Source: a virus (lineage: Duplodnaviria > Heunggongvirae > Uroviricota > Caudoviricetes). Taken from it: a stretch of 4,615 nt of DNA. How positions within the stretch are numbered: the stretch's first letter is position 1; each line of letters opens with the position of its first letter. The notes beneath the pieces were generated by a model. The model ran no database searches. It was not told the origin of the DNA and saw only the letters and a list, made by a program, of their open reading frames with translations. A program made the position numbers and the translations under genes. Of this stretch, positions 1 to 3,331 are shown one piece after another. The DNA lies in the IMG/VR virus record IMGVR_UViG_2740892229_000014; one strand, 5' to 3'.

Positions 1-162
1 ACAGGAATATGGCTCACTGCCTCTTTCACCATCTGCTCAATCATCGGACGCACATCATCGGGGGTGATACTTTTGCCGTCTGCCGGTACCGGAATATTCG
101 CAACCGCATCATTCACCGCCTTCTGCAGAACATCCGGATCGTAGTCACGACCGTCGCGCGGA
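1..162 (-). CDS. Continuation (partial, runs off window edge) of the coiled-coil/tandem-repeat protein gene that starts at 478
   Basis: Minus-strand frame with first full codon at 161..159 is open across the segment and translates to PRDGRDYDPDVLQKAVNDAVANIPVPADGKSITPDDVRPMIEQMVKEAVSHIP, the same two ~25-aa repeat types seen in 173..478. Phase relative to 173..478 cannot be fixed because of the N run. Confidence 0.5.
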
Positions 163-254
163 NNNNNNNNNNCGCCGGTACCGGTATTTTCCCGACCGCA
201 TCATTCACCGCCTGCTGCAGTACATCCGGATCATAGTCACGACCATCACGCGGA
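82..254. repeat. Imperfect direct repeat flanking an N gap: 82..162 vs 174..254 (81 bp each, about 9 mismatches)
   Basis: Aligned by eye: gccggtaccggaatattcgc...cgcgcgga vs gccggtaccggtattttccc...cacgcgga. In addition 1..~60 resembles 255..~314, reflecting tandem repeat units inside the gene. Confidence 0.8.
163..172. other. Assembly gap (10 N)
   Basis: Run of exactly 10 n characters. Confidence 0.97.
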
Positions 255-478
255 ACAGGGATATGGCTTGCTGCGTCCTTCACCATCTGCTCAAGCATCG
301 GACGCACATCATCACCCGTCACGCACTTCTGTAATACCACAGACTGAGAAGCCAGTTTTTCTTCAAACGTTTGTGCCTGCGCGGCTATTTTCTCCTCAAA
401 TGTACGCTGTAAATCCGCCAGCACCATGGCGAATTCTTCGCCCAGTGCACGAATAATGGACAGTTCCCGTTCCGTCAT
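173..478 (-). CDS. N-terminal segment (102 codons) of a coiled-coil + tandem-repeat protein of unknown function; possibly a scaffolding/decoration-type head protein
   Basis: ATG 478..476 overlaps the portal stop TGA 477..475 (ATGA). G-rich SD-like GGGGG on the minus strand at 494..490. Product MTERELSIIRALGEEFAMVLADLQRTFEEKIAAQAQTFEEKLASQ..., followed by repeats DDVRPMLEQMVKDAASHIPVP / RDGRDYDPDVLQQAVNDAVGKIPVPA. No family recognised. Confidence 0.65.
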
Positions 479-1003
479 TTTCGCAGTATCCCCCTGAACA
501 TCGCTTTCACCGCATCATGCTCTGTTTCACTGATTGCCTTATTACCGTCAGATGCGCCATCAGGCAGTTGTGCTGAGACTGTTTTCCCGGACGACGCGAA
601 CGGATCCTCACGGGCATCACGACGGGACAGCGCCTCCAGACTGTAGTTCTGCTGCTGAAGATACAGTGCATCACCGCCGGCAAGGGGCGGCAGGTTCTCA
701 CGTTTACGGGCCTCATTGGGCGTGAGAAGCGTATTTTTCACCGATTCACCCAGTGTTTTCATGCGCCGTTCGCTGTCCATTCTCAGCAGCGTGGTGACGT
801 CAAACTCCGTGCTCTCGTTTTCCCCCGTTTCCAGCGCCTCATCCAGTAACAGCTCAATGGACTCAATCAGCGTCTGCAGACACTGGGAATAATACTGCTG
901 CTCCAGCGCCTCCACGTTGTCACTGGAAGGCGGGTGGCCAACGCCAATCTTGTAGGCCGGGACACGGAACACCGAACAGACAATTTCAGCCGTCATTTTC
1001 AGT
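475..1003 (-). CDS. Phage portal protein, HK97-type, C-terminal segment (ends at stop 477..475)
   Basis: Translation ...KMTAEIVCSVFRVPAYKIGVGHPPSSDNVEALEQQYYSQCLQTLIESIELLLDEALE... contains the conserved portal motif resembling I-x-R-A-F-G-V-P of HK97-family portals; frame open from 1002 to the stop. Confidence 0.85.
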
Positions 1004-1098
1004 NNNNNNNNNNATCACTGGAGGGAGGTTGTCCCACACCAATCTTGTAGGCCGGGACACGGAACACCGAACAGACAATTTCAGCCGTCATTTTCAGT
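919..1098. repeat. Imperfect direct repeat flanking an N gap: 919..1003 vs 1014..1098 (85 bp, last ~53 bp identical)
   Basis: caatcttgtaggccgggacacggaacaccgaacagacaatttcagccgtcattttcagt is present on both sides of the gap; the preceding ~30 bp differ at about 8 positions. Confidence 0.85.
1004..1013. other. Assembly gap (10 N)
   Basis: Run of exactly 10 n characters. Confidence 0.97.
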
Positions 1099-1407
1099 TG
1101 TTCCACCGTCTGCGCATCCACCGGTGAAAACGTCGTGGGGTTATATTTCGCCCCGTTGCTCAGAATCGCCGTTTTCCCCGCATTTTCGCCGGTATACCCG
1201 CTGTCCCAGTTGCTCTTCAGTTTTTTCGCATTTTCTTCCGTAATACTGCCGGGGATCTCAATCACCCCGGACGGCCTGCCGCCATTTCTGAAAAAAGACG
1301 TTGAATTTGCCTGAATATGATGCCCCTGCGTGGCAGCCAGCCCGGCAGCATACACCGGCGGCAGCCCCACAAGCGGATGAAAAAAACAGTTAAACCGGTC
1401 GTGGATC
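1014..1407 (-). CDS. Phage portal protein, HK97-type, middle segment
   Basis: Frame open from 1406 to 1014: IHDRFNCFFHPLVGLPPVYAAGLAATQGHHIQANSTSFFRNGGRPSGVIEIPGSITEENAKKLKSNWDSGYTGENAGKTAILSNGAKYNPTTFSPVDAQTVEQLKMTAEIVCSVFRVPAYKIGVGQPPSSD. It overlaps in protein sequence with the segments on either side. Confidence 0.8.
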
Positions 1408-1684
1408 NNNNNNNNNNCTGTATTTTGCCCCGTTGCTCAGTATGGCCGTCTTCCCGGCATTTTCGCCCGTATATCCGCTGTCCCAGTTCCCCTTCAGTTT
1501 TTTCGCGTTTTCTTCCGTAATACTGCCGGGGACCTCAATCACGCCTGATGGTCGCCCGCCATTTCTGAAAAAATACGTCGAATTTGCCTGAATATGATGC
1601 CCCTGCATGGCCGCCAGCCCGGCGGCATACACCGGCGGCAGCCCCACAAGCGGATGAAAAAAACAGTTAAACCGGTCGTGGATC
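1141..1684. repeat. Imperfect direct repeat flanking an N gap: 1141..1407 vs 1418..1684 (267 bp, about 24 mismatches, ~91% identity)
   Basis: Aligned by eye base by base; both copies encode the same portal region with only 4 amino-acid differences (M/T, Y/S, V/I, G/S). Confidence 0.85.
1408..1417. other. Assembly gap (10 N)
   Basis: Run of exactly 10 n characters. Confidence 0.97.
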
Positions 1685-2211
1685 ACTTCCCGGGCAGGCA
1701 CCGTCACCGCCTCCGTGATCCCGCAGTTCCGGTCCGGCGTGATGCGATAGAACACCTCGCCGTCATCCGCCACCAGAGGTTCAACCCGGCTCCAGTCCAG
1801 AATACGCAGTTCTTTGATCTGCCCACGGGAGTTACGGATTTTCAGCACCACCGTATTGCCGTGACGCAGTTTGGCGTTCAGCCACAGTTCAAAAAACTGG
1901 ATACGATTCTGCTGTGCATTGGGACGACGACAGAGACGGGCAATATCCCCCTGCCGTTTTTCACGGCGGATCCCCTGTGTATCGGTCTGCATCAGGCGCA
2001 GTCGCATTTTGGCGATATCCTGGGATATCAGCGAAATGCAAGAAAACACCGCATGAAAGGAGAGGACACTTTCCGGATCGGCTTTCACTCCCTGCTGCCA
2101 GGCACCGGCAAAAGGCTCAGCCACCGCCTGAAACAGGCTGGTCCAGCCCACCTCTTTTACATCACGTCCTGATTTCTGGTTTTTTCGGGGTCGCCGCAAA
2201 AGGTTCCACAT
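1418..2211 (-). CDS. Phage portal protein, HK97-type, N-terminal segment (start ATG 2211..2209)
   Basis: MWNLLRRPRKNQKSGRDVKEVGW...DPESVLSFHAVFSCISLISQDIA...HDRFNCFFHPLVGLPPV...FFRNGGRPSGVIE...NWDSGYTGENAGKTAIL matches the conserved blocks of HK97-family portals as I remember them. In-frame TGA five codons upstream of the ATG; GGAG SD 8 nt upstream. Confidence 0.85.
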
Positions 2212-2378
2212 TCGCCATGCTCCGCATCACGTTTCTTTTTCTGACCTGCCGGACGTCGCGCTGTGATGTACTCCGCCTTCCCCAGGCGAACCAGCACCTC
2301 CGCACACGGCTGTGCCACATCACGGATATCCCCGGCCCGGGCATCATGCGTGCCCTGCAGATACTGGATTTTTGCCAT
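2157..2378 (-). CDS. Hypothetical small protein (73 aa) between the capsid and portal genes; its end overlaps the portal start by about 55 nt in another frame
   Basis: ATG 2378..2376 with an in-frame TAA two codons upstream; enteric-like codon choice (CTG, CAG, GCG, CGT) but no clear SD within 15 nt. Product MAKIQYLQGTHDARAGDIRDVAQPCAEVLVRLGKAEYITARRPAGQKKKRDAEHGE...; no family recognised. Confidence 0.35.
   Translation of the reverse strand: MAKIQYLQGTHDARAGDIRDVAQPCAEVLVRLGKAEYITARRPAGQKKKRDAEHGECGTFCGDPEKTRNQDVM
2220..2223 (-). promoter_or_regulatory. Putative Shine-Dalgarno (GGAG) for the portal ATG at 2211..2209, 8-nt spacer
   Basis: Minus-strand sequence gcGGAGcatggcgaATGtgg read directly. 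Confidence 0.45.
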
Positions 2379-2422
2379 CAGTTACTGCGGGAAGCTCGCG
2401 CCTCCCGCCCTCCTCATCAGAC

Positions 2423-3107
2423 TCAGCCGCCGGACGCAGTTCCGTAGTTCACACCGGTGATCACCGCCACCGCCGCAGTACGGCGACGACGCCAGTTGAT
2501 CCAGCGCTCCGCACGGATGGCCACGCTGCCGGTCTGGAACATGGAGACCAGCTCCACCGGTGACGGTGTGCTGCTGTCGCTGGTCGGTTCAGACTGCATC
2601 TCCAGTGACGCTTCACGGGACATATCCACCGCCACACCGCCGTCATCAGCCAGATAAATATCCGGTGCATTCACCAGTACCAGCTGGTCACCCACATACT
2701 GGGAGACAATCACCGGCAGCCCCTGGAAGGTCCCGCCCAGCAAGGTCATGTCCGGATATTCCTTCTGCCCCAGCGCATTTTTACGCATGGACAGCGCCAG
2801 GGCATTCGTGCTGGACATCAGCCAGACCGCACCGGTGGGCTGCAGATTTGCCGTCACAAACTGGCCAAACGCGGCCTCGGCATCCGCATCCGGGTTACCG
2901 GTTGATGCCGTGCCCTTCACATCATGGGTGATGGACGCCGGGGAGACATCCGCCACCGCCGCTTTTTTCGGGTCCACAAAGTCTGTGTCCAGACGCGCCA
3001 CCACCGCTTCTGCCAGCGCATTACGGACCAGCGCATCAGCTGCCGGACTGGAAAAACGGATCAGCTCTTCCGTCAGTACCGCAATGGCCGACACCTTCGC
3101 ATGACTG
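2423..3107 (-). CDS. Major capsid protein (HK97 fold), C-terminal segment of the protease-scaffold-capsid fusion gene (stop TGA 2425..2423)
   Basis: Frame open from 3106 to the stop: SHAKVSAIAVLTEELIRFSSPAADALVRN...LVLVNAPDIYLADDGGVAVDMSREASLEMQSEPTSDSSTPSPVELVSMFQTGSVAIRAERWINWRRRRTAAVAVITGV, ending with the R-A-E-x-R-containing C-terminal block typical of HK97-like capsid proteins. First ~70 aa duplicate the end of the segment beyond the gap. Confidence 0.85.
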
Positions 3108-3331
3108 NNNNNNNNNNATTACCGCTTGACGCCGTGCCCTTCACATCATGGGTGATGGACGCAGGGGAGACATCCGCCACCGCCGCTTTTTTCGGATCAA
3201 CAAAGTCTGTGTCCAGACGTGCCACCACCGCCTCTGCCAGCGCATTACGGACCAGTGCATCAGCAGCCGGGCTGGAAAAACGGATCAGCTCTTCCGTCAG
3301 TACCGCAATGGCCGACACCTTCGCATGACTG
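2894..3331. repeat. Imperfect direct repeat flanking an N gap: 2894..3107 vs 3118..3331 (214 bp, about 11 mismatches, ~95% identity)
   Basis: Aligned by eye; both copies encode SAIAVLTEELIRFSSPAADALVRNALAEAVVARLDTDFVDPKKAAVADVSPASITHDVKGTAS with a single T/S difference. Confidence 0.85.
3108..3117. other. Assembly gap (10 N)
   Basis: Run of exactly 10 n characters. Confidence 0.97.

Follow-up and report, generated by a model that had tools for sequence, protein, structure and literature searches.

False duplications at N gaps in a lambdoid prophage head-gene block: probable side-by-side placement of assembly-graph arms from two paralogous prophages

Why should the head genes of a lambdoid prophage be interrupted by short runs of N, each bordered on both sides by similar yet non-identical copies of one sequence? 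The window (the whole stretch of DNA that was analysed, 4,615 nt in length) contains four such runs of exactly 10 N, at positions 163-172, 1004-1013, 1408-1417 and 3108-3117, referred to below as gaps 1-4. A previous reading of this DNA, made from the sequence only, had reported direct repeats flanking all four of them, and our analysis recovered the same repeats, of 81, 85, 267 and 214 nt. These are 82-162/174-254 at gap 1 (88.9% identity), 919-1003/1014-1098 at gap 2 (91.8%), 1141-1407/1418-1684 at gap 3 (91.0%) and 2894-3107/3118-3331 at gap 4 (94.9%), so that the four pairs together range from 88.9 to 94.9%, and all of them align without internal gaps. At gaps 2-4, the facing ends align all the way to the edges of the N run, with no base left over on either side. 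Four N-abutting repeats of such length and identity are far beyond what chance would give. The only other long repeat within the window is 1-59/255-313 (90%), and it belongs to the same genuine 162-bp tandem array as the gap-1 pair.

When the window was compared with 5,426 complete E. coli genomes, the closest was that of the O80:H2 isolate 2013C-4991. Its single chromosome carries two paralogous prophages, one at 1.55 Mb and one at 0.25 Mb, with head genes that share about 92-98% identity; the two elements served as our references, prophage A (L001) and prophage B (L002). In a 61-mer walk, only 45 of the N-free 61-mers in the window, located around site 2717, were absent from both A and B. 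The earlier suggestion that two prophages of one genome could be involved is thereby given a concrete basis. Identity to Stx-converting phages and STEC prophages is 93-99%, and in the genomes having the block, it occupies a median of 1-3 places per genome and at most 7-27, the figures varying with the query. The DNA very probably derives from an EHEC strain very close to O80:H2 2013C-4991, with two or more lambdoid prophages that are paralogous to each other.

The window covers the head-gene block, with portal and protease-capsid genes, of an EHEC lambdoid prophage, and it ends inside an ISEc23 insertion. It contains:

1-478, minus strand: 5' part of a 407-aa ORF with 54-aa tandem repeats, downstream of the portal gene, taken from the ORF list; interrupted by gap 1
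475-2211, minus strand: portal gene, 454 aa in complete copies; PF04860, E = 6.8e-81
2157-2378, minus strand: small 73-aa ORF between the capsid and portal genes; PHROG 829 match
2423-4569, minus strand: prohead protease-major capsid fusion gene, 640 aa in copy A; PF04586 and PF05065, PHROG 617
4559-4615, no strand assigned: first 57 nt of ISEc23 (IS66 family), from the annotation of L001, in the 5' end of the prophage A protease-capsid gene

The PF04860 match and those to PF04586 (E = 4.6e-09) and PF05065 (E = 1.1e-14) are all above the gathering scores, PHROGs 2271 and 617 are both matched, and the 407-aa ORF matches the C-terminal half of PHROG 2271 'portal protein'. Judged by these matches, the window carries an HK97-type head module of lambdoid prophages. 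Homology between A and B ends at window position 4558. In L001 the insertion element occupies 9871-12402, starts with GTAAGCG, has an 8-bp target duplication (CCGTCAGC) and is annotated with the tnpA/tnpB/transposase trio of IS66 genes.

Both the length of the locus in other genomes and the state of its genes speak to the nature of the repeats. In phage and complete E. coli genomes, blastn gave a span of 3,870 bp for window positions 1-4558 and of 3,927 bp for 1-4615, each 688 bp shorter than in the window; this difference is accounted for by counting the repeats once (81 + 85 + 267 + 214 = 647), dropping 40 N and adding 1 from the inclusive end positions. The duplicated blocks of gaps 2-4 are present in a single copy at the locus in the complete genomes and phages inspected. 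Within the window, the portal gene is broken by gaps 2 and 3, and the protease-capsid gene by gap 4, in each case together with the false duplications there. Deleting the Ns together with one arm at each of these gaps makes both reading frames intact again, at 454 and 640 aa, respectively, each with 0 amino-acid differences from prophage A.

The Ns divide the window into five contigs, whose alleles were assigned by comparison with the two references:

1-162: contig S1, one exact 162-bp tandem-repeat unit, A allele; 100% identical to L001 5839-6000
173-1003: contig S2, internal A/B chimera, by site-by-site comparison with L001 and L002
1014-1407: contig S3, pure A allele; 100% identical to L001 6827-7220, 92.4% to L002
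1418-3107: contig S4, A/B mosaic, by variant-site comparison and 61-mer walk
3118-4615: contig S5, pure A allele, including the prophage/ISEc23 junction; 100% identical to L001 8430-9927

At gaps 2-4, the left and right copies turned out to be the alleles of the two paralogous prophages, as expected from the earlier view that they are not true tandem duplications. In the terms of the mechanism proposed below, the copies and the gaps between them are:

919-1003: B arm of bubble 1, left copy of gap 2; seven B alleles at 919-943, then exactly 60 shared bases
1004-1013: gap 2, a 10-N placeholder; true distance -85 (S2 end = L001-equivalent 6911, S3 start = 6827)
1014-1098: A arm of bubble 1, right copy of gap 2; starts at the first A/B difference
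1141-1407: A arm of bubble 2, left copy of gap 3; first mismatch at offset 0, end 60 bases past the last mismatch
1408-1417: gap 3, 10 N; true distance -267
1418-1684: B arm of bubble 2, right copy of gap 3; 24 B alleles at 1418-1624
2894-3107: B arm of bubble 3, left copy of gap 4; first mismatch at offset 0, end 60 bases past the last mismatch
3108-3117: gap 4, 10 N; true distance -214
3118-3331: A arm of bubble 3, right copy of gap 4, by variant-site comparison

The geometry of these blocks is regular. In all three of them (3/3), the first base is itself a mismatch (offset 0) and exactly 60 nt follow the last one. In a de Bruijn graph with k = 61 built only from L001 and L002, every one of the nine contig boundaries (9/9) falls on a node boundary, node starts numbering only 36 over about 4,450 positions; with other odd k from 21 to 127, at most 4/9 do so.

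Gap 1 is of a different kind:

163-172: gap 1, a true gap inside a tandem array; about 80 bp missing (L001 6001-6080, three short graph nodes)

In L001 coordinates, S1 runs to 6000 and S2 begins at 6081, and both flanks are 100% allele A. TRF delimited the array at L001 5629-6221, with a unit of 162 bp (54 codons) in 3.7 copies, within the open 407-aa ORF, and detected no tandem array besides this one in L001 5000-10000. Prophage B also carries a 162-bp array, and the array is seen in long-read genomes. Both ends of S1 lie at node boundaries for k = 61, and the predicted nodes around the gap start at L001 6001, 6055, 6075 and 6081. Judged by their positions in the reference, the gap-1 flanks are successive real repeat units and not an allelic overlap; the short repeated nodes between them would have been skipped, and the apparent overlap reflects the likeness between one unit and the next. 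Thus, the idea that the window is a chimera of two diverged copies stands for gaps 2-4, where the copies are the A and B alleles, and falls for gap 1, where a two-copy overlap had likewise been assumed but both sides are A with about 80 bp missing between them.

On the other side, the chimerism is wider than that reading had claimed, as S2 and S4 switch allele internally. S2 carries the A allele at 50/50 variant sites in 173-604 and the B allele at 14/14 in 676-1003; the switch lies inside a 71-nt stretch common to A and B, the 61-mer walk is concordant, and none of the 64 A/B variant sites of S2 matches neither reference. S4 consists of blocks that are B at 1418-1624, A at 1790-2190, B at 2262, A at 2380-2552, B-type at 2639-2743 with an A allele at 2717, and then B at 2894-3047, again with no third base at its 64 A/B variant sites. 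S5, by comparison, is A at 88/88. Genes that span the gaps do mix alleles, as had been warned, and the A/B site assignment bears this out. Among the 5,426 complete genomes, the best matches reach 98.4% for S2 and 98.9% for S4, while for the S4 interior (1685-2893) the highest identity is 99.7%, with prophage A; no 100% copy of S2, S4 or the S4 interior occurs in this set. At least one short haplotype, that of 2639-2743 (B, B, A, B), is not buildable from A and B at k = 61, and site 2717 would need a third copy or a strain-specific SNP; the haplotype around this site is found in other genomes.

Taken with the geometry of the contig ends, these observations make it very probable that the duplications at gaps 2-4 are bubble arms of A and B that an assembler working at k = 61 placed in series, gap 1 being a genuine repeat. 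The window would represent all or part of a scaffold produced by de Bruijn graph assembly of short reads. Stretches shared by A and B would collapse into common nodes, and each cluster of differences would open a bubble of two arms, one for each prophage, a tangle through which the assembler would pass without phasing. In six bubbles one arm, either A or B, would have been retained, yielding the mosaic contigs S2 and S4, which we infer to be artefactual rather than natural recombinants. In three bubbles the scaffolder would have tied both arms to the same neighbours and placed them one after another; the estimated distance being negative, the minimum placeholder of 10 N would be inserted, leaving false duplications of 85, 267 and 214 nt.

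Post-gap contigs lack the k-1 prefix and start at the first variant base, and pre-gap ends extend 60 nt further, which indicates that nodes were joined in graph space. Velvet keeps nodes without their first k-1 bases and writes a minimum gap of 10 N if the estimated distance is 10 or less; we infer a Velvet-like assembler. Its default length limit for bubble popping is reportedly shorter than some of the single-arm bubbles here. Tour Bus popping might have produced the mosaic blocks in which one arm only was kept, but several of these blocks exceed that limit. For the missing arms, inclusion in another scaffold and loss by popping are about equally possible, with some leaning towards the former.

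An alternative that we regard as unlikely would accept only the gap-flanking duplications as artefacts, and attribute the S2 and S4 mosaics to gene conversion between prophages residing in the source strain. In EHEC, lambdoid prophages commonly recombine with one another. Moreover, the haplotype of S4 at 2560-2893 is present naturally in other strains, and a 91-mer across the S2 switch matched 11 viral and 2 metagenome contigs, and 0 genome contigs, in three public collections; the contigs bearing it are only 90-94% identical to S2, have no N10 gaps and are unrelated natural haplotypes. Gene conversion would, however, require five crossovers in 2.5 kb, all confined to the small number of shared stretches that reach 61 nt or more. 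Indeed, 5/5 internal switches fall within the 9 shared intervals of this length, out of 127 intervals in total (p ~0.017 under length-proportional crossover). Neither mosaic occurs in any of the five closest complete genomes with the ISEc23 junction (0 of five), and at its gaps this scaffold can be shown to combine arms of both prophages. Were the mosaics nevertheless the outcome of repeated gene conversion, they would represent a recombinant head module absent from the 5,426 complete E. coli genomes, a prospect that we rate slightly lower still.

The sequence-only reading had favoured contigs of two related elements, ordered on a reference and joined by gaps of fixed length. All gaps are indeed exactly 10 N long, the contig order is collinear with the reference prophages, and two elements are present. 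However, finished FASTA contigs of a k-mer assembler keep the k-1 prefix and should begin with the 60 nt preceding the first variant, whereas at gaps 2-4 they start at the first variant itself; a tiler would not normally place the 394-nt S3 so as to overlap both neighbours, and the gap-1 flanks have no overlap at all in reference coordinates. With every contig end on a k = 61 node boundary and the prefix missing after the gaps, this version of events appears improbable. It is more improbable yet that the alleles came from a mixture of two strains, through contamination or mixed culture: bubbles with diverged arms would likewise be expected, but one chromosome (2013C-4991) contains both alleles and covers all but 45 61-mers, so that a second strain is unneeded, and STEC genomes typically carry several copies of the block. 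Real tandem duplications in the source prophage, for which nothing speaks beyond their presence in the record, can practically be dismissed, since their ends are set by variant positions and by k-1 = 60, none of the matching complete genomes or phages that were inspected has them, and both essential head genes are disrupted by them and the 10-N runs but exactly restored by collapsing them.

If the arms of A and B were placed in series, as we propose, each duplicated arm should be covered at about single-copy depth by one haplotype, shared stretches between them at 2-3x, and mixed haplotypes should appear in the single-arm mosaic blocks. The earlier expectation of two-fold depth and two haplotypes across the duplicated blocks was therefore mis-specified. 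The duplications at gaps 2-4 are an ordinary assembly artefact and hold no new biology, and the finding is of value solely for quality control. Assembly has broken the portal and capsid genes and mixed their alleles, which means that pseudogene calls, allele typing, prophage counts and recombination inferences made from this record would be wrong. The signature, a duplicated block running from the first variant to the last plus k-1 beside an N run of minimum length, is a simple diagnostic that needs no reads, and could flag the same artefact in drafts rich in paralogous prophages.

As a piece of prophage DNA, the window resembles other EHEC/STEC lambdoid prophages (Sakai Sp-like or Stx-phage-like), with a portal gene, a small ORF and a protease-capsid fusion, and with several copies per genome; nothing biologically distinctive sets it apart from them. 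Copy A has ISEc23 in the 5' end of its capsid gene. As an assembly product, it resembles Velvet-style scaffolding in the odd k (61), in arms that run from the first variant to the last plus k-1, in the 10-N gaps and in the prefix-less nodes after them. It departs from such scaffolding at three points: the window's first base is a prefix-less node start, like that of a post-gap node, whereas a first Velvet node would keep its 60-nt prefix; the window stops 57 nt into the insertion element and not 60 nt; and gap 1 is written as 10 N where about 80 bp separate its flanks in the reference strain. The error class itself has been described as 'duplicated overlapping contigs', in which diverged overlapping ends are set side by side via mate links (Kelley & Salzberg 2010, Genome Biol 11:R28, PMC2864568), and in vertebrate assemblies the same class is termed false or haplotypic duplications (PMC9516828). 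Our case shares with the former the two diverged versions of a locus held as separate contigs, adjacent in the scaffold and creating the illusion of a recent duplication. Unlike the diploid haplotypes considered there, the two versions here are paralogous prophages at two distant loci of a haploid chromosome, and the blocks are only 85-267 nt long, with ends set exactly by k = 61.

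The best-matching complete genome was that of E. coli 2013C-4991, an O80:H2 EHEC analysed previously in the context of ST301 (PMC8537712). Two paralogous lambdoid prophages, A (L001) and B (L002), lie about 1.3 Mb apart on its single chromosome, and prophage A carries an ISEc23 junction identical to that of the window. A site-by-site comparison revealed no third base, present in neither A nor B, at any variant site of the window, and all N-free 61-mers were found in A or B, except for 45 around site 2717. The four N runs, each of exactly 10 (163-172, 1004-1013, 1408-1417 and 3108-3117; gaps 1 to 4 from left to right), separate five contigs, S1 to S5. 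Re-measurement of positions, lengths and identities showed that the sequence-only reading had described these runs and the repeats flanking them accurately.

Contigs and gap-flanking direct repeats of the window
1-162, contig S1
173-1003, contig S2
1014-1407, contig S3
1418-3107, contig S4
3118-4615, contig S5
82-162 and 174-254, repeat at gap 1, 81 nt, 88.9% identity, ungapped
919-1003 and 1014-1098, repeat at gap 2, 85 nt, 91.8% identity, ungapped
1141-1407 and 1418-1684, repeat at gap 3, 267 nt, 91.0% identity, ungapped
2894-3107 and 3118-3331, repeat at gap 4, 214 nt, 94.9% identity, ungapped

S1, S3 and S5 are 100% identical to prophage A, and no 100% match was found among 5,426 complete E. 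coli genomes for either S2 (best 98.4%) or S4 (best 98.9%). Joining of the blastn matches gave, in every complete record, a counterpart of 3,870 bp for window 1-4558 and one of 3,927 bp for 1-4615. The window exceeds this counterpart by 688 bp: each duplicated stretch counts only once in the latter (647 bp), the 40 N drop out, and one further base arises from the counting of both end positions. In the coordinates of locus A the window occupies L001 5839-9927, starting at 5839 since S1 lies one repeat unit further upstream.

At gaps 2, 3 and 4 the left and right flanks represent different alleles of the same coordinates (B/A, A/B and B/A, respectively), as would be expected from the earlier proposal of two diverged copies, which thus holds for these gaps. 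Each time, the first A/B difference marks the start of the duplicated block, whose end lies exactly 60 nt past the last difference. A de Bruijn graph was constructed with L001 and L002 as its only input; node starts were recorded along A, with node coordinates lacking the first k-1 bases, and compared with nine boundaries: the window start, the end of S1, both ends of S2, S3 and S4, and the start of S5. At k = 61 the node boundaries matched all nine, and no other odd value of k between 21 and 127 matched more than four, these being 'first variant' starts that do not depend on k. The nine coincidences cannot be due to chance, since only 36 node starts occur in about 4,450 positions. Taken with the allele pairing and the variant-bound block ends, these matches indicate that each contig is a chain of k = 61 graph nodes, that each pair of duplicated blocks consists of the A and B arms of a bubble formed by differences between the paralogous prophages, and that the 10-N runs at gaps 2-4 represent a negative distance.

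It had also been proposed that the pieces were finished contigs, ordered post hoc on a reference and joined with gaps of fixed length. Pieces following a gap lack the k-1 prefix, and those preceding a gap retain the full k-1 tail, an asymmetry not expected of finished FASTA contigs; it argues against such ordering and for concatenation in graph space. Velvet nodes omit the initial k-1 bases, and the program inserts 10 N where the estimated gap is 10 or less; we infer that the assembler was Velvet-like. In prefix-less coordinates a k = 61 node also starts at window base 1, which behaves as a node start following a gap, a coincidence which suggests another gap or a trimmed end immediately upstream.

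All genes of the window are encoded on the minus strand, and Stx-converting phages and STEC prophages match its DNA at 93-99% identity.

Genes and other features of the window
1-478, minus strand, 5' part of a 407-aa ORF with 54-aa repeats
475-2211, minus strand, portal gene (PF04860, E = 6.8e-81)
2157-2378, minus strand, 73-aa ORF
2423-4569, minus strand, prohead-protease/major-capsid fusion (PF04586 and PF05065; PHROG 617)
4559-4615, last 57 nt of the window (60 nt expected), end of ISEc23 (IS66 family)

Gap 1 is of a different origin. Both its flanks carry allele A; S1 is exactly one 162-bp unit (L001 5839-6000), and S2 starts at L001 6081. Tandem Repeats Finder, run on the complete copy, reported a single array of 162 bp x 3.7 at L001 5629-6221. 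The array (54-codon units, 93-97% identical, touching window 1-313) lies inside the 407-aa ORF directly downstream of the portal gene and is present in both prophage copies; a Pfam search with the repeat domain gave weak sub-threshold matches only. As the array is also found in long-read genomes, the 81-nt '89% overlap' is the normal likeness of successive in-frame units of a real tandem repeat, not an overlap of two copies as had been assumed, and the 1-59/255-313 repeat arises in the same way. The contig ends match the repeat because it makes the graph branch. Three nodes predicted by the graph between S1 and S2 (54, 20 and 6 nt) are missing from the window, where 10 N stand against about 80 bp in 2013C-4991.

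Allele switching takes place not only across gaps 2-4 but also within S2 and S4. In S2, every one of the 50 variant sites from 173 to 604 has the A allele, and every one of the 14 from 676 to 1003 has the B allele. S4 is of B type at 1418-1624, A at 1790-2190, B at 2262 and A at 2380-2552, followed by B, B, A and B at 2639, 2666, 2717 and 2743, and by B at 2894-3047. Only nine of the 127 inter-variant intervals between 173 and 3107 are stretches of at least 61 nt shared by A and B, and all five clean switches fall inside them (p ~0.017 under length-proportional crossovers). The path changes allele at five of these nine shared nodes and keeps it at four, which is what an unphased walk should give. 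The S4 interior (1685-2893) has no 100% match in complete genomes, the best being prophage A with four B-type SNPs. Given the placement of the switches and this lack of a match, S2 and S4 are regarded as putative assembly chimeras, and natural recombination in the source strain appears quite improbable as the source of the mosaics.

Site 2717 bears an A allele within an otherwise B-type block. The 45 61-mers absent from A and B start at 2657-2666 and 2683-2717. At k = 61 no combination of A and B yields the B, B, A, B alleles seen at 2639-2743. At least 40 other complete genomes contain the local haplotype (2560-2893) with 100% conservation, and 2013C-4991 contains a third matching place. Together, these points implicate a third paralog, or a SNP specific to the strain, in the pattern.

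The portal gene ends where the repeat-containing ORF starts, the stop and start codons overlapping in the sequence ATGA (475-478, minus strand; L001 6383-6386), with an A-run, GAAAATGAC or AAAAAATGA, ahead of it. PGAP annotates the pair as a single 'frameshifted' portal pseudogene, and the PHROG 2271 model is a fused 859-aa protein. The ATGA arrangement is kept in 15 of 15 loci compared, some only ~90% identical; this conservation suggests that the pair may be a two-ORF arrangement, involving translational coupling or programmed frameshifting, rather than a product of decay. In prophage A, the protease-capsid gene carries an ISEc23 insertion 26 nt inside its 5' end (L001 9871-12402, 2,532 bp, with CCGTCAGC as the 8-bp target duplication). 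Since the element lies between this gene and the terminase genes, head assembly is probably defective in prophage A. Five complete genomes share the identical junction (2013C-4991, 25-07338, 25-07233, 25-06685 and LB858871).

In the window, the portal and capsid ORFs are broken by false duplications and N runs. With one arm and the Ns deleted at gaps 2-4, both ORFs are intact again (454 and 640 aa) and encode the same proteins as prophage A, the remaining B-type bases being synonymous. The duplications flanking gaps 2-4 are an artefact, not a biological feature, and pseudogene, allele or recombination calls made from this record are unreliable. False duplications of this kind were described for diploid assemblies as 'duplicated overlapping contigs' (PMC2864568); the window presents their bacterial equivalent, driven by paralogs.
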